From positions 1,573,173 to 1,637,172 of the forward strand of contig OZ253485.1 of NCBI GenBank assembly GCA_965261935.1: 64,000 nt of DNA, in the 5' to 3' direction. The first letter of the stretch is position 1. Each line of letters starts with the position of its first letter. Both the position numbers and the translations under genes were made by a program. The notes beneath the pieces are model-generated. The model saw nothing but the letters and a program-made list of their open reading frames with translations, ran no database searches and was not told the origin of the DNA. Positions 6,974-61,297 of this stretch are shown here, in pieces. The DNA is from Dehalococcoidia bacterium (lineage in GTDB: Bacteria; Chloroflexota; Dehalococcoidia; Lucifugimonadales; G963668185).

Positions 6974-7011
6974 TTGCCTTCTGCGAACACTAGTGCTACT
7001 ATTGTTGTATG
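6974..7011 (+). promoter_or_regulatory. Sigma70-type promoter with LexA-like box and leaderless start (element copy 1)
   Basis: TTGCCT-17bp-TACTAT-6bp-ATGAAC, with CGAAC-ACTA-GTGC in the spacer. Confidence 0.65.
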
Positions 7012-7309
7012 AACATCGTCGACCGAGCACCCATGCAGGCGAGCCGTGTCCTTATGGGTCCAGGGCCATGCCCTGGTGCCCTGGTGCCTTGGTGGCCGCT
7101 CTTGACCGCGTTCGGCCGCTTCTGGAGCTTCTGGCGCCGCACTTCAGCTTGGAATTGCCCGCATCAGGCCGCCTACCGCGGACATCCCCGTGGTTCTCAG
7201 TCTCGAATGCGCAGCGCCGGTTGACATTGAAATCGCGCGCCAACGGCTTCTCCATCCTGGCCTGGGCTCGGGACCCGTTCCCTACCCCGATGCGGCACCC
7301 CTTCACCGA

Positions 7310-7436
7310 CTGTCTCACGAATGTCTCAAAGTGTCTCAATGTTGCTTCATTTCCGTCTCATCAACGTCTCAAACTCGTCTCACTGCCAACGAGGAGCCAG
7401 CTATGAAACGAGACGAAACGAGACGAAATGAGACGT
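7310..7436 (+). repeat. Phased repeat array (copy 1)
   Basis: GTCTCA-like units at 7312, 7323, 7333, 7344, 7355, 7366, 7377; CAGCTATG at 7398; GAGAC at 7410, 7420, 7430. Confidence 0.85.
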
Positions 7437-17989: not shown

Positions 17990-19288
17990 ATGGCAGGCAC
18001 GAAACTGGATAGCGCAGAGGTCGTTGTCATAGGCGGAGGCGTCTCCGGCCTGAGTTCGGCATGGTGGCTCGCGCAGCAGGGAGCGGACGTAGTCGTGCTG
18101 GAAAAGGGCGTAGTCGGCTGGGAGGCATCGGGCCGCAACGGCGGCGGGCTGGGACATCGGGCGGGCGACCCGCCGGTCACTCCGCTGGCCACTCAGGCGC
18201 TCAAGCTGTGGCCTGAGATGCACGAGAGACTCGGCTACCCGACCGAGTACATACCAGGCAGGCTCCGGGTGGCGCTGACCGAGCGCCAGATGCAGATGTG
18301 CGAGATGTCCCATGAGCACTGTCTTAAGGTGGGTGTCGACTCGGAGCTCATGGATCCGAAGGCCATCAAGGAGCTGGTGCCGGTTGTGAACCCAGCAGTT
18401 GTTGGCGGCGTGATGGCGCCTGCCGAAGGCAAGACCAATCCTCAGCGCGTGGTCCAAGCGTACGCCTGGGCGTTCCAGGACCTGGGCGGACGGCTGTACC
18501 AGCACACCACGGCTACGGGATTCCTGATGAGCGGCGGGAAGGTGACGACGGTGGAGACGAATCGCGGCGAGATCGACTGCGACTTCGTGGTCAGCGCGGC
18601 GGGCCCACAGACAGGGCTACTTGCCGAGATGGCGGGCGCGTTCGTTCCAGTGTCGCCGGCCCGAGTGGAGATCATAGTCACGGCGCCGATTCCCCGGCAC
18701 TGGGCAGGCGGATTCGTGGGCAACGGGTTGTACGGCCGGCAGACGGTGCGCGGCAATCTGGCGTATGGCGGCGGCCCGCACGAGTGGATAGACGTGGACA
18801 ACACGACGCCGAGGAAGCCAAACACGCCCCTGATCCGGAACATTGCGCGGCGCTTGGCTGAGCTGCTGTCAGGCGCGGCCGAGGTGCCAGTGATCCGGAG
18901 CTGGTCGGGAGTGGTGGAACAGACGCCGGACCTCTGGCCGATCATCGACTTTCTGCCGGAGCCGTCCAACTACCTGCTTGTCACCGTGTCGGGGCACGGG
19001 TATGGCCTCTCCCCCGCGACAGGCATGGTGGTTAGCGAGTTGATCCTCAAGGGCGAGACGACTGTGAACATCGACGGGCTTGGCATGTCGCGTCTGGCAG
19101 ACATTCCGAGGGACTGGAAGGAGGAGCGGGGCTGGGTGCCCCTGCCAGAGAGCAGCACCCACCGGGAGTACCCGTACTCGCACTACGAAGGCGTCGTCGG
19201 AGGCTTACCTCAGGAAGTGCTGCAGGGGTCCGCCGGAGGCTCGCCCAGAACAGTGCCGGATGAGTCGGGAGAACAGTTCGTCTGCTAG
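17990..19288 (+). CDS. FAD-dependent oxidoreductase (DAO/sarcosine oxidase beta-like)
   Basis: GGGVSG dinucleotide motif, ASGRNGG, TPD..PII and SGHGYG motifs. Confidence 0.9.
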   Translation: MAGTKLDSAEVVVIGGGVSGLSSAWWLAQQGADVVVLEKGVVGWEASGRNGGGLGHRAGDPPVTPLATQALKLWPEMHERLGYPTEYIPGRLRVALTERQMQMCEMSHEHCLKVGVDSELMDPKAIKELVPVVNPAVVGGVMAPAEGKTNPQRVVQAYAWAFQDLGGRLYQHTTATGFLMSGGKVTTVETNRGEIDCDFVVSAAGPQTGLLAEMAGAFVPVSPARVEIIVTAPIPRHWAGGFVGNGLYGRQTVRGNLAYGGGPHEWIDVDNTTPRKPNTPLIRNIARRLAELLSGAAEVPVIRSWSGVVEQTPDLWPIIDFLPEPSNYLLVTVSGHGYGLSPATGMVVSELILKGETTVNIDGLGMSRLADIPRDWKEERGWVPLPESSTHREYPYSHYEGVVGGLPQEVLQGSAGGSPRTVPDESGEQFVC

Positions 19289-19520
19289 GGGCTGGTCCTA
19301 AAACGTCTTTTGATAGGATCTTGGCGTCCGCGTCAGCCTTGCGCTGACGAACCTCTGTCCAAGCTCATGCCCTCCTTCACAGCGCTTATGGCGAGGGAGG
19401 GGTGCGCTTACGAGGGCGTGTACACCATGAACTTGCCGCTTCAGATCCACTGCGCCCTTGGCTTGGGGCGAGACCTGCCGGCTTCACGGTAGTGGGTTGA
19501 GAACCTCACGATCGCCAGAA

Positions 19521-19656
19521 TCTGTCACATTCCGTAACTTTCTGTCACAGCGCATAGCTGAGGAGCACTGGCGCGCGTTACATTGGCCGGCATTTTTGCT
19601 ACCTGAATGGCACAGAAACGACACTGAATGGTGGAGAATGATACATTCTGTGACAT
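19521..19656 (-). repeat. Phased repeat array (copy 2, GTCACA variant)
   Basis: Minus-strand degenerate TGTCAC/TGTATC/TGTGCC/TGTAAC units about 10-11 bp apart; CAGCTATG at 19553-19560; inverted units at 19523, 19533, 19543. Confidence 0.7.
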
Positions 19657-19737
19657 GGCTAACGGGGAGCCTTGAGGCCGTGATGCGCGGGGAACGTCGG
19701 AGTTGCGCTGGCGCCGGGTAGTCAGATTCGCAGCGTT

Positions 19738-19775
19738 CATGCGTCCATAATAGCACACCAGTTCGCCAAGAGCAA
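19738..19775 (-). promoter_or_regulatory. Sigma70-type promoter with LexA-like box and leaderless start (element copy 2)
   Basis: Minus strand TTGCTC-17bp-TATTAT-6bp-ATGAAC, with CGAAC-TGGT-GTGC in the spacer. Confidence 0.65.
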
Positions 19776-19857
19776 GGGCGGCCTGCGAAAAGTCACTAGT
19801 GGCGCGAAATCTTTGAAATGAAGACCTACAGTTCTGTTGGCGCTACGCGCCAACGCT

Positions 19858-19920
19858 CCCTCACCCCTTCGGCAGGCTCAGTACAGGCTCTAACCCTGTG
19901 CCACAAAGGGGAGAAGGGAC
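19858..19920. repeat. CCCTCACC-type REP interrupted by a CCTTCGGCAGGCTCAG-type REP
   Basis: Matches the reverse complement of the 2071-2108 REP, with an extra CCTTCGGCAGGCTCAGTACAGG segment. Confidence 0.55.
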
Positions 19921-56923: not shown

Positions 56924-56947
56924 GTAGGGGCTGGTTTCAAACCCGCC
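56924..56947 (+). repeat. GTAG-type REP
   Basis: GTAGGGGCTGGTTTCAAACCCGCC. Confidence 0.8.
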
Positions 56948-57491
56948 TTCTCCGCTGGCAATTGACAGGATTGTCTATGTCCTCGGACCATTTCTTGGGA
57001 TTATCAATGATGTATTCGCGAACTCTGTTCAATTCGTGCTCGCTGCGGATGATGTGATCATAGAATCCGCGCTGCCAGACATGTGAGCCGGTGGATGCGC
57101 GTATCTGATTGATTGTACGTGCAGAGAACGTCTTGAAAGCGCGTACGATCTCGCTCATGCTGTGACGTTCGTCGACAACGCGCTCTGAGAGGGCGGGTTG
57201 TAAACCCGCCCCTACGCCCATGGTGTTGTCTTCGATAATGATCACACCGTGTACATGATTCGGCATCAGAACGAACGCATCAAGAGTGATGTTCAGGTAG
57301 TGCTTGGGCAGATTCGCCCAACAGTCCTCCACAATCGCGCCGAAGTGGTTCGCTGCCATTCTGCCATTTACAATGTGCCCAAACAGCAGATGGCGATTCC
57401 AAGTACATGCAGTGATGAAGTAGCCGCCTGCGGTTGAGTAGTCGTAGCCTCGCAGACGTAATTGCCTGCGACGTCGTTCTATGAAATGCAA
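56937..57491 (-). CDS. REP-associated tyrosine transposase (RAYT, Y1 HUH)
   Basis: RLRGYDYS..G.YFIT, MPNHVH, WQRGFYDHIIR and YIIDNP motifs. Confidence 0.93.
   Translation of the reverse strand: MHFIERRRRQLRLRGYDYSTAGGYFITACTWNRHLLFGHIVNGRMAANHFGAIVEDCWANLPKHYLNITLDAFVLMPNHVHGVIIIEDNTMGVGAGLQPALSERVVDERHSMSEIVRAFKTFSARTINQIRASTGSHVWQRGFYDHIIRSEHELNRVREYIIDNPKKWSEDIDNPVNCQRRRRV
57190..57215 (-). repeat. GTAG-type REP inside the RAYT coding sequence
   Basis: Minus strand GTAGGGGCGGGTTTACAACCCGCCCT, encoding VGAGLQPAL. Confidence 0.85.
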
Positions 57492-59211: not shown

Positions 59212-59338
59212 GTGTCTCATTTTGATTCATTTCGTCTCATTCCGTAGCTGGGGAGGCCTTGGTGCTGGGACGTTATCGAGACGACTTTGGAGCACGACTG
59301 AGGCGATTCCGAGACACTTTGGGACAAAGATGAGACAG
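59212..59338 (-). repeat. Phased repeat array (copy 3)
   Basis: (T/C)GAGAC-like units at 59266, 59277, 59288, 59299, 59310, 59320, 59331; CAGCTACG on minus at 59243-59250; inverted units at 59214, 59224, 59234. Confidence 0.85.
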
Positions 59339-59420
59339 TGGCTTGGGCCCCCTCACGCGAGTGTCGGCGTGGAGAAGTAGGCGTAGCGCTGCATCGGCGG
59401 GAGCCGATTGCTATGGAGTT

Positions 59421-59458
59421 CATGCATCAATAATAGCACGCTAGTTCGTGTCAGGCAA
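59421..59458 (-). promoter_or_regulatory. Sigma70-type promoter with LexA-like box and leaderless start (element copy 3)
   Basis: Minus strand TTGCCT-17bp-TATTAT-6bp-ATGAAC, with CGAAC-TAGC-GTGC in the spacer. Confidence 0.65.
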
Positions 59459-59513: not shown

Positions 59514-60156
59514 CTCTACGACCTGTTCCCGGACCGGCTGGTGACGTCGGAACTTAGGGATGTGGCGGAGAGGTGAGAGGTTGACGTTCTAGACGACGCT
59601 TTTGAATTACTAGGCGGCGGTACTCCTCCTACGTCGGAGCCCTCCTAATCGGAATGGAGATATCCCTTGGTAAAAGGCCAAGGTCGCTCCCGCCCTGAGC
59701 GATATTTTCGTCTTAGAAACAGAGATAAAGATCACGCAGGCAGGAGTCGAGAACAGTTCTACAACGATTCAACCCGCTAAGGGTAGGGTTGGTCGCCTGG
59801 CCTGTCTTGGAAGGCCAATGGTCATGAACCAGACTTGCTATGGCATTCGAGGCGCCGGGTGCTACTCACACCTCCTTACGTATTGGAGTGTGCGAACAGC
59901 GGTAGATGAGCTTCAGACGCGAACACACCGCACGATCTTTGACACCATCAACCATCAGACTTTCGAGTTGGTCGAAACGGTACTAGTGCCCGTTGAAGTG
60001 GCACAAACCTTCGAATCGGTGGTAGGCTTGTTGATGACACACATCCTCGAAAACTTGCATGGGTCCCGTGTACTCGTGATTCAGCGAGATGCACTGCTGC
60101 CGAGAATGATGTCGGACCAGCTGACTCCTATTGGAAGTAAAGGCAATGAGCGCTAA
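59514..60156 (+). pseudogene. hsdS: Type I R-M specificity subunit (HsdS), decayed C-terminal half
   Basis: LYDLFPDRLV.SEL, GGGTP, NGDIPW, KITQAG..NSST, MNQTCY and RDALLP.MMS motifs, interrupted by stops and frameshifts. Confidence 0.85.
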
Positions 60157-61297
60157 AAATACAAAAGTTAATTTGCATGGACTAGCATCTAAACGTTTAA
60201 CGTCTATCTCTGATGCCATGATACCTAAGTTGGAGATTCAATCCATTTCGCAGCTCTTGCAACAATTCACTAGGCAGCAAGAATCGTTGCGAGCCTCATT
60301 TGGCCTTCTCGAGGATTTTCGACTTGCCCATCAACTTGACTACGCAATACCTAGAATGAGCGAATTGCTTGCATTAGAGCAGCAGTTCATATTGCCAGAC
60401 ATCACAGACACCTTGAATCTAATGGCTGAGGTCAACAAGCAGAATCAATTTGCATTGGCTGGGCTCTTTCAAGAGAAGTGGATGGATGACCTAAAAGGCC
60501 AAATTAGGAGTCTGCAGCATCCTTGGTTTGATGTTAAGAACCAAACTGAATCCATTAGTAGTTTGGCGGAGTTGCATGGCATTGGTCATGCCCTAAGTAA
60601 TACGGCGGCCTTTGATCCTGCTCTAACAGATGAGTTGAGATTCGATTTGGGCGATTGGCGAGGCAACATCACATGGCCAGCTGAGATTGCTGTTGATCCA
60701 CTTGCACGGATCTCCTTCTATGAGGAACGAGGCCTTGACTCGACCTTGACCGCGTTTCCTTATCCGGCATTTGAGGAGATTTTGTCCACCAGTGGCCTAA
60801 CGACAACGGATGTACCTATCGCGGACGAATACAATAGGATAACGGAAGACGAAGACGGCCAGTCTGACTTTGAGCGCACTAATCGGGCGCACGATTTGAT
60901 TCAGCGCTTTGAGACGCAAATCAGGAAGTATGTCGATGAGGCGATGGATATAAACATTGGACCGCATTGGATCACTCATCGGGTTCCTGAAGACATGAGA
61001 CTACAGTGGCTTCGAAAGCGTGAAAGTGCACTAGCTAGCGGAGAGCAGGAATGGCCACTGATCGTCTACGCGGATTTCTCCGACTACATTAAGATCATTG
61101 CTAGAAGAGATAATTGGAGGGACGTATTCGAACGAATCTTCACCCGCAAGGCGGACATTCAGGAATCATTTCGAAGACTATATCCTATACGTATATGCAC
61201 GATGCACTCACGCCCTATCACTCAGGACGACGAGTTGCTTCTCCACGTAGAGACGAAACGCATACTCAGTGCCATTGGGAACGAATTTCATGTCTGA
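60131..61297 (+). CDS. Swt1-like HEPN domain protein
   Basis: C-terminal FETQIR..., YADFSDY.KII.RRDNW and Rx4H (RICTMH) motifs; lower GC than the backbone. Confidence 0.8.
   Translation: MEVKAMSAKNTKVNLHGLASKRLTSISDAMIPKLEIQSISQLLQQFTRQQESLRASFGLLEDFRLAHQLDYAIPRMSELLALEQQFILPDITDTLNLMAEVNKQNQFALAGLFQEKWMDDLKGQIRSLQHPWFDVKNQTESISSLAELHGIGHALSNTAAFDPALTDELRFDLGDWRGNITWPAEIAVDPLARISFYEERGLDSTLTAFPYPAFEEILSTSGLTTTDVPIADEYNRITEDEDGQSDFERTNRAHDLIQRFETQIRKYVDEAMDINIGPHWITHRVPEDMRLQWLRKRESALASGEQEWPLIVYADFSDYIKIIARRDNWRDVFERIFTRKADIQESFRRLYPIRICTMHSRPITQDDELLLHVETKRILSAIGNEFHV

Follow-up and report, generated by a model that had tools for sequence, protein, structure and literature searches.

Leader-peptide attenuators, for instance those of the trp and pyrBI type, rely on a short upstream open reading frame (ORF) whose translation, and not its product, matters. 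The element analyzed here lies at positions 19521-19775, read on the minus strand, of a 64-kb window (the whole stretch of DNA that was analyzed) from the 3.23-Mb genome of a Dehalococcoidia bacterium (G000). It is the second of three copies in the window (copies 1 to 3) of a cassette that comprises a strong promoter, a short ORF predicted to be located at the transcript start and phased repeats, forming a left and a right arm around a core, whose motif varies between species. As in the attenuators, the cassette carries a short upstream ORF that is kept open (82 of 89 cassettes), segments that are complementary at the class level, a T-rich tract and an ORF end located before this tract. Furthermore, 47 of 72 cassette arrays precede a co-oriented gene, which is not the case of copy 2. 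Unlike these attenuators, the cassette is predicted to be leaderless and recurs about 70 times in a genome, ahead of genes that are unrelated to one another. Phased multi-unit repeats, and not unique segments, form its arms; a simple scanner saw no compact terminator at the copies of the window, and a third of the arrays, that of copy 2 included, face a convergent gene.

Other comparable systems include dispersed repeats. BOX elements of Streptococcus pneumoniae, Correia elements and ERIC-type repeats are modular and intergenic, with variable internal units and complementary outer parts, and they can carry promoters and affect neighboring genes. The cassette is alike as a dispersed modular intergenic repeat, a comparison based on the general description of these elements rather than on their sequences. 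To our knowledge, none of them has a conserved promoter together with a maintained open frame at the transcript start, hexamers phased at 10 and 11 nucleotides (nt) or units that are rewritten by species at conserved loci. Iterons and ParR-parC arrays adjoin the gene of their binding protein and are found once or twice per replicon. They share with the cassette short direct repeats at 10-11 bp and a concerted motif change that defines specificity groups. By contrast, about 70 cassette arrays are scattered among housekeeping genes, are probably transcribed and are crossed by a stop-free frame. No gene of a repeat-binding protein adjoins the copies of the window, the neighbors of which are all housekeeping genes (lipoyl synthase-like, RNA methyltransferase, DAO oxidoreductase, methyltransferase and AMP-binding enzyme).

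Repetitive extragenic palindromes (REPs) are described as GC-rich palindromes of 20-40 nt mobilized by a Y1 transposase (RAYT) (PMC3116915, PMC3337134). REPs and REPINs resemble the cassette arrays in being short, intergenic, present in tens to hundreds of copies per genome and divided into species- or genome-specific classes (PMC3116915, PMC3337134). However, the cassette array is about 165 nt long, AT-richer, phased and accompanied by a promoter and an ORF. Whereas RAYT genes have their own REPs, which come in inverted pairs, on either side, the Y1-transposase-like ORF of the window (56937-57491) lies some 1.7 kb away from copy 3 and has no arrays on its flanks; separate GGCCGC...TTGGCCGC repeats look more REP-like than the cassette arrays do. 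Finally, putative mobile promoters are presented as highly similar promoters found upstream of many unrelated genes in one genome (PMC3575422). By contrast, the cassette promoter comes with an ORF, phased arms, a core and a tail, and its position is often conserved between species.

A dispersed family of cassettes

Copy 2 is a typical representative of a cassette family that numbers about 70 dispersed members per genome. A strict regular expression combining the promoter and ATGAAC retrieved 10 copies in G000, and profiles built from them detected 82 promoter matches and 86 core-plus-right-arm matches in the same genome (nhmmer, E<=1). These matches include 70 same-strand promoter/arm pairs separated by 50-900 nt, the gap between promoter end and arm being 150-174 nt for 36 of them. 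The promoter pattern GAACN{4,5}KTGCTANNATN{6,8}RTG was found 47, 65, 29 and 14 times in G000 and in three congeneric genomes (G001, G002 and G003), respectively, versus 1, 0, 0 and 0 times with a reversed control. The promoter, ATGAAC, core and three inverted units at 10-nt spacing that an earlier note had listed for copy 2 are indeed present (Table 1), the promoter comprising a -35-like box, a 17-nt spacer and an extended -10 box, and the ATG-to-core distances that it gave are exact (180 nt in copy 2, 173 nt in copy 3 and 389 nt in copy 1). The core that it considered as shared is found in copy 2, as CAGCTATG, but copy 3 carries CAGCTACG; the former has six matches in the window versus 1.28 expected, only two of the six being located in cassettes. 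As for the repeats of copy 2, GTNAC occurs five times in 19521-19660 versus 0.33 times expected from its density in the window, and none of 5000 shuffles reached five.

The arrays are about 165 nt long, open with TGT and close with ACA. The autocorrelation of the left arm is maximal at lag 11 (0.36 and 0.46 for the motif classes A and B described below), whereas the units of the right arm are spaced by 10 nt. The core is maintained in each of the motif classes as well as in further families of the order, and every class ends in an ACA-N-(A)TTTTTCG-like tail. By contrast, leaders are unrelated between most copies. In all 10 strict copies, the -10 box ends 7 nt before the ATG; therefore, the transcript should start at or beside this ATG.

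We consider the cassette as an undescribed element of sponge-type Dehalococcoidia. A full-text search of the literature found no description of such elements in Dehalococcoidia, and both ORFs and arrays escape standard annotation. The whole window gave no Rfam match at gathering score, and 19400-19900 gave chance-level matches alone (E>=2.1, i.e. at least 2.1); the peptides of copies 2 and 3 match no Pfam family at E<=0.01, and no relative was found at E<=0.01 among the proteins of 39-125 residues of a protein collection.

According to our own crude gene caller, none of 72 arrays of G000 lies inside a called gene. The 47 arrays that face a co-oriented gene do so at a median of 167 nt from its start, for a null co-orientation of about 54%. 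No replichore orientation bias was seen in a by-eye count, about 37 of 70 cassettes being co-directional with a presumed, unproven origin. Two promoters of G000 are each followed by a class A and then a class B array, without a second promoter (1800124-1800509 and 3056249-3056850), indicating that arrays can stack in one transcript, and some promoter modules of this genome are devoid of any array. At 2682326 (+), an array is cut off on its left, immediately behind the end of a DDE transposase gene that encodes the C-terminus; the insertion of an insertion sequence (IS) has thus truncated this cassette.

The promoter region had also been credited with a LexA-like box. This proposal is not supported by the sequence: GAAC is present alone, without a GTTC half-site after it, and GTGC belongs to the extended -10 box. 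The lexA homologue itself has a TTGACA-17-TAGATT promoter with the same CGTGCTA extended -10 as the cassettes (L165 1690-1900, G000 ~935430-935640). An 11-bp palindrome, TGTTCAGAACA, directly follows this promoter; it is unlike the box of the cassettes and is a candidate LexA operator of this organism.

Table 1. Coordinates of the features of the three cassette copies of the window
Copy	Feature	Position	Strand	Remark
2	-35-like hexamer TTGCTC	19770..19775	-	position kept as cTTGC in family listing; putative promoter role
2	spacer, 17 nt, containing GCGAAC	GCGAAC 19766-19761	-	sequence
2	extended -10 GTGC-TATTAT	19756-19747	-	matches family promoter pattern at G000 1592910-1592936
2	short ORF, 71 codons + stop	19525..19740	-	ATGAAC from 19740; predicted leaderless
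2	variable C-rich leader part of ORF	19657..19737	-	leader, unrelated between most copies
2	left arm, 11-nt period	19575..19656	-	clean units GTCACA 19654-19649, GTATC 19644-19640, GTAAC 19581-19577
2	pyrimidine-rich pre-core (GTGCTCC) + core TCAGCTATGC	19552..19569	-	family consensus CCAGCTAYGR
2	core match CAGCTATG	19560-19553	-	sequence
2	right arm, three inverted units 10 nt apart	19522..19549	-	TGTGACAG 19549-19542, GTTAC 19538-19534, TGTGACAG 19529-19522
1	cassette, class B (GTCTCA)	6974..7436	+	promoter 6974-7002, ATG 7009, core 7396-7405
1	left-arm unit starts	7312, 7323, 7333, 7355, 7366, 7377	+	
1	right-arm unit starts	7410, 7420, 7430	+	
3	cassette, class B	59214..59458	-	promoter TTGCCT-17-TATTAT 59458-59430; ATG 59423-59421
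3	ORF, 68 codons	59423-59217	-	
3	core CAGCTACG	59250-59243	-	right-arm units 59239-59214

Motif classes and their concerted change

Typing of the 72 arm matches found at E<=1e-3 in G000, 70 of which have a recognizable core, assigned 44 arrays to GTNAC (class A, as copy 2) and 26 to GTCTCA/TGAGAC (class B, as copies 1 and 3). The motif of copy 2 had been presented as switched; it is in fact that of the majority class. Its unit is present on both arms, as had been claimed, but the left arm holds few clean units and is otherwise a degenerate 11-nt-periodic sequence. In the three congeneric genomes, 100 of 108 promoter loci were examined, eight loci of G001 being left out. They revealed class C (GTTGCA/TGCAAC) in G002, class D (GTTCCA/[TC]GGAAC) in G001 and class E (GGGACA/TGTCCC), and in every class the unit fits a common frame, TG-NNN-CA. 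Of 156 arrays from the four genomes, a set that includes some spurious core matches, 124 are callable on both sides and 32 are uncallable on at least one side; in the former, the two arms have the same majority motif in 118 cases and different ones in 6. The concerted change of both arms proposed in the earlier note is thus borne out at the class level, by these arrays as well as by shared loci; the opposite pattern that it had named, arms that vary independently, is not what is seen in this genus.

At shared loci, the motif changes in concert and genome-wide. Of the 100 loci examined in G001-G003, 96 have downstream flanks that match G000, many of them beside a G000 array. For instance, the copy 3 locus, upstream of the gene of an AMP-binding enzyme, is occupied by class B in both G000 and G003, by class D in G001 and by class C in G002, and the copy 1 locus carries B in G000, D in G001 and C in G002. 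Twelve class B loci of G000 have partners in other genomes: in G001, these are five D, one degenerate B and two A; in G002, six C and one hybrid; in G003, one B and one A. The class A loci of G000 mostly remain A in G001 (15 pairs), while four C and two E-like partners are found in G002. The partner of copy 2 in G002 (L051) is E-like and its ORF is shut early; at the same locus, G003 has a 15-bp spacer and G001 about 310 bp in which no element was seen. On BLAST alone copy 2 had looked specific to G000, a conclusion that we withdrew once promoter-anchored retrieval had shown L051.

In the 15 A/A pairs, orthologous arrays share an identity of 0.686, compared with 0.686 and 0.723 for paralogues within G000 and G001, respectively, and 0.659 for non-orthologues from these two genomes. 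The nearest array is a paralogue from the same genome in 12 of 15 cases for G000 and 14 of 15 for G001. Leaders of positional orthologues are hardly more alike than those of non-orthologues (identity 0.519 versus 0.503). The array identities, together with the shared loci, indicate that arrays are homogenized within each genome while the cassettes stay put. A genome-wide switch of motif has to rest either on gene conversion between dispersed arrays or on a reader that co-evolves with them. Whatever its mechanism, this species-wide switch at conserved loci is a clear case of bacterial concerted evolution of dispersed non-coding modules, and it makes the two possible causes of such uniformity, gene conversion and a co-evolving reader, directly accessible to study.

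Two mechanisms had been put forward in the earlier note for the agreement of the arms, base-pairing covariation and specificity groups read by different proteins. The agreement itself stands at the class level, but it establishes neither of them. Hybrid arrays, the order of class A units, the lack of a conserved class A helix and the unrelated arms of two other families of the order (f12 and f21) all speak against simple base pairing. Class A arrays usually have GTAAC followed by GTCAC in the left arm and GTTAC followed by GTGAC in the right arm, so that units are inverted singly and their order is not mirrored. Against class-specific proteins, f12 has many unit types together, and no cognate protein was identified, none having been searched for.

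A co-evolving reader is central to one alternative view of the array, that of a protein platform on double-stranded DNA in which the phased TG-NNN-CA hexamers would lie on one helix face, converge toward the core and be bound by proteins with a specificity that differs by class and species. The periods of 11 nt (left) and 10 nt (right) do approach the helical repeat of DNA, the unit varies in its three central bases but not in its flanks, and the one-by-one inversion of class A units, in unmirrored order, as well as the weak support for an RNA structure (see below) fit this view. The species-wide switch at shared loci is also what co-evolution with a trans-acting reader would be expected to produce. 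However, no candidate for this reader was identified, no search aimed at one having been made; the genes around the copies of the window are housekeeping genes, and the coexistence of classes in one genome, and of many unit types in f12, would call for many readers. Moreover, a DNA platform does not explain why the array has a fixed place 60-90 nt behind a strong promoter, a T-rich tail and a stop-free ATG frame, and exactly three right-arm units at 10-nt spacing suit a reading-frame logic better. We consider this platform unlikely.

An open reading frame through the arms

In most cassettes, the ATG frame runs free of stops through the left arm up to the core, a property that is new here and absent from the earlier note. 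Frames were compared from nt 5 (ignoring the first codon) to the core in 89 cassettes of the four genomes, five near-identical IS-borne copies being dropped. The ATG frame contains 12 stops (3 in leaders, 9 in arrays) and is stop-free in 82 of the 89 cassettes. By comparison, frame +1 contains 119 stops (57 and 62) and frame +2 contains 111 (54 and 57), with 18 and 30 stop-free cassettes, respectively. None of 20000 random frame draws matched the openness of the ATG frame. The same bias is found among the 94 cassettes with standard spacing, 83 of which have an ATG frame without a stop up to the core, versus 35 for frame +2, and in G000 alone (46 of 57 cassettes, versus 11 and 18 for the other frames).

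In copy 2, the ORF opens with the ATG that lies 7 nt downstream of the -10 box and terminates at a TGA within the third right-arm unit. Likewise, most class B ORFs extending as far as the core terminate within the right arm, at +12, +22 or +32 depending on the frame. Since the periods of 11 and 10 nt are not multiples of 3, the units of the right arm present the same letters once per frame, and class B therefore offers a TGA in every frame. Altogether, 39 of 80 open frames end within 34 nt of the core start.

The constraint bears on the open frame rather than on the peptide, since the variability of the array part shows no excess at the third codon position (0.428, 0.360 and 0.375 for positions 1, 2 and 3) and differing codon pairs comprise 172 synonymous versus 921 nonsynonymous ones. 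The frame at the core also varies within every class. A small protein family was rejected on the basis of this variable frame, of the absent codon-position signal and of the lack of match in Pfam and among the proteins of 39-125 residues of the collection.

A related possibility is that the cassettes are stand-alone genes for small RNAs or small proteins (dual-function transcripts), the 3' module being a scaffold and the 5' part or the peptide acting in trans. Each cassette has its own strong promoter and T-rich end, the 3' module is conserved while the 5' region varies, and the 25 of 72 arrays that, as copy 2, have no co-oriented downstream gene would be accounted for. The ATG frame is kept open, and the peptides display a loose N-terminal pattern, with N as residue 2 in 37 and H as residue 6 in 43 of the 89 peptides. 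However, a specific guide acting in trans is unlikely since leaders are not conserved in positional orthologues. Selection on a protein would be expected to leave the codon-position signature and the constant frame at the core that the cassettes lack. The codon-usage log-odds of the leader in the ATG frame is just +0.028 (versus -0.137 and -0.293 in the other frames), and Rfam, Pfam and the protein collection gave no match. Stand-alone genes are, in our opinion, quite unlikely. Guide-like leaders were also considered and rejected, since a BLAST of the leaders against the genome returned inserted short repeats and paralogous leaders alone.

A possible translation-coupled leader

The reading that we favor, tentatively, is that the cassette is a cis-acting leader of the attenuator type, coupled to translation and working at the RNA level. 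The transcript would begin at the ATG, or within a base or two of it, and an ORF of roughly 55-75 codons would span the unconstrained leader, the 11-nt-phased left arm and the core CCAGCTAYGR. Its frame would commonly end inside the three inverted units spaced by 10 nt, ahead of the T-rich tail. A ribosome loaded on the 5' ATG would trail the polymerase and keep the left and right arms from pairing. Without this ribosome, the arms would pair ahead of the T-rich tail, and the transcript would end there or be stabilized as a short RNA. Owing to their periods of 11 and 10 nt, the arms would tolerate whichever frame is entered. As for the hexamer, its motif would be arbitrary, with a uniformity within an array and a genome that is kept by slippage and gene conversion, and this proposed homogenization would be the reason why whole genomes differ in motif.

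Such a leader would explain several traits: the promoter, a frame that is open though unconstrained, periods that tolerate any frame, stops lying in the right arm, arms that are complementary at the class level and a T-rich tail. The computed energy of the left-right duplex is -25.0 (class A) and -31.3 (class B) within a class, versus -21.0 across classes and -19.2 and -17.3 with shuffled right arms.

A substantial set of observations nevertheless weighs against this leader. Regarding its genomic context, 25 of 72 arrays, including copy 2, face the 3' end of a convergent gene. For copy 2, the downstream neighbor is a convergent DAO-family gene (17990-19288), so that there is no downstream gene to attenuate, and its tail, ATTCTGG, is a poor T tract. 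A simple promoter scanner passes copy 3 but neither copy 1 nor copy 2, and a simple scanner found no compact terminator at any of the three copies of the window. About half of the open frames do not stop in the right arm and run 55-377 nt past the core. In addition, among 22 arrays of f12 and f21, 12 have no ATG after the -10 box that our pattern could find, and complementarity between the left arm and the right one is usually lacking in these families.

The evidence on pairing of the arms is mixed. The arms of a given copy pair no better than same-class arms of other copies, and no copy-specific covariation was found, 1605 of 2000 permutations reaching the observed value in class A and 360 of 2000 in class B. 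Copy 2 folds no better than shuffled sequences (z -0.50 and -0.55) and copies 1 and 3 fold only modestly better (z -1.44 and -1.93). RNAalifold proposed no long-range helix in class A and a 7-bp outer helix alone in class B. When class A arms are set in a nested register, the central base of GTNAC is typically mismatched. A unit-by-unit test of registers gave no clean nested pattern in class B, for which the z-scores may reflect relatedness, and class C was represented by two arrays. TGAATC, a recurrent variant of the right arm, is not compensated on the left. In a pair of class E orthologues, only the left-arm units differ (GGGACA versus GGGTCA), and some arrays are hybrid or discordant (L045, L062, L064 and L070). 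These include G002 hybrids of B and C units; in L070, the left arm is mostly B and the right arm is entirely C. The leader reading does not explain why some copies, copy 2 among them, face a convergent gene, why class A folds weakly or why some families lack arm complementarity.

As for expression, the RNA runs consist of assembled contigs, which cannot show starts, ends or strand and in which DNA may be present. Among the DNA runs, some contain 81-96% of the sampled words of this genome. In two RNA samples from one study, a contig spans 19500/19502 to 19686/19691, and in one of the two the contig of the convergent DAO gene stops at 19450, a weak hint that a transcript ends just beyond the array of copy 2. 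Runs X12 and X14 partially cover the cassette of copy 2, which is not proof of transcription, and X17 does not cover it. One X6 contig skips 201 nt (19545 to 19747); it was disregarded, the shorter side of the match being just 24 letters long.

It is doubtful, but not far-fetched, that about 70 leaderless mini-ORF leaders of this kind couple many unrelated operons to ribosome availability, with a repeat 'dialect' that is rewritten in concert at the conserved loci of each species. If this were true, one group of uncultivated sponge-associated Dehalococcoidia would put one compact device before dozens of unrelated genes, a new way of tying many operons to translation status. The rewriting would also call for a trans-acting reader in co-evolution with all arrays, or else for a directed homogenization of dispersed 165-bp modules, neither of which is described for bacterial regulatory DNA in the literature that we searched.

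Distribution and mobility

Only one set of near-identical cassettes was found, i.e. six copies of G001 (L129-L134) that lie within an element of about 830 bp derived from the IS5 family. This element is bounded by inverted ends (GAGGGTGTCTAAGAAGG...) with TTA/TAA flanks, and of its IS5-family transposase it retains an N-terminal fragment. Since the six copies are located inside it, their spread in G001 is that of a passenger. A cassette at a xanthine-dehydrogenase-like locus (L074) looks like the source of these IS-borne copies.

These observations bear on the idea that the cassettes themselves are selfish non-autonomous elements of the MITE (miniature inverted-repeat transposable element) type, in which the subterminal repeats would be transposase sites and the classes transposase-matched subfamilies. 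The cassettes are multicopy and strictly intergenic (0 of 72 in called genes), their presence varies by species, as illustrated by the 15-bp spacer of G003 at the copy 2 locus, their arrays start with TGT and end with ACA, and six near-identical copies exist in G001. However, these six copies hitch-hike in the IS5-derived element; elsewhere, copies are not alike over their whole length, their leaders being completely different. Many cassettes occupy the same locus in several species, and neither a full-length partner element nor a partner transposase nor a target duplication was seen, flanks being inspected by eye only. We consider a MITE origin very unlikely. An origin from a tRNA was also dropped: CTCCCAGCTG has some likeness to the antisense of a tRNA D-loop, but its orientation is inconsistent with that of the T-loop-like GGTTCAATC.

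Beyond the genus, a class-agnostic pattern (the core followed by three G-NNN-C units at 10-nt spacing) matched 21 of 401 genomes sampled from the order, whereas the reversed control yielded singletons alone. All four genomes of the genus (g1) carry it, with 37 (G000), 56, 32 and 5 matches. It was also found in 10 of 11 genomes of family f12, in one genome of f21 and in two of f17, while four single matches look spurious. In f12 and f21, the right arm again comprises three like units, of many types, and f12 genomes hold many unit types side by side. Orthologous cassettes of these families keep their left arm while their right-arm units differ. As their right arms are usually not complementary to the left ones, the agreement of the arms is a trait of this genus and not of the whole cassette family. 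Of the 22 arrays examined in other families, 10 have a recognizable start, and the ATG frame of 9 of these is open.

Other features of the window

The leader of copy 1 is lengthened by an inserted short repeat and its ORF shuts early within this leader, at nt 213 of 389. The insertion (~7045-7080) is a GC-rich repeat of the GGCCGC...TTG(G/A)CCGC type with a REP-like look; the leader segment that contains it has 16 more matches in G000, and the repeat is found in or after several other leaders. The Y1-transposase-like ORF (56937-57491, minus strand, 184 aa) contains a partial IS200-like Y1 transposase domain (PF01797, E 4.6e-8) and could, judging from sequence, be a REP-associated transposase matching the GC-rich GGCCGC repeats.

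Upstream of copy 2, 19858-19897 holds a piece of about 35-40 nt of an inverted-repeat element of the GGGAGAAGGG...CCCTTCTCCCC type. This piece is extremely abundant in metagenome runs, with a summed depth of 1083 in X6, and many X6 contigs match it alone and diverge on both sides of it. A replication origin near the GC-skew minimum (~12 kb) was considered and rejected, as the ORFs located there encode citrate synthase, a methyltransferase and cupredoxins, and not DnaA.

Close to copy 3, ~59565-59600 (+) carries GAGGTGAGAGGT...TTCTAGAC, which resembles the right end of the 830-bp IS5-family-derived element. Further on, 60131-61297 (+) encodes a 388-aa protein with a C-terminal Swt1-like HEPN domain. 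This gene sits in the only low-GC stretch of the window (GC 0.51 at 60-62 kb), which may be a small foreign island.

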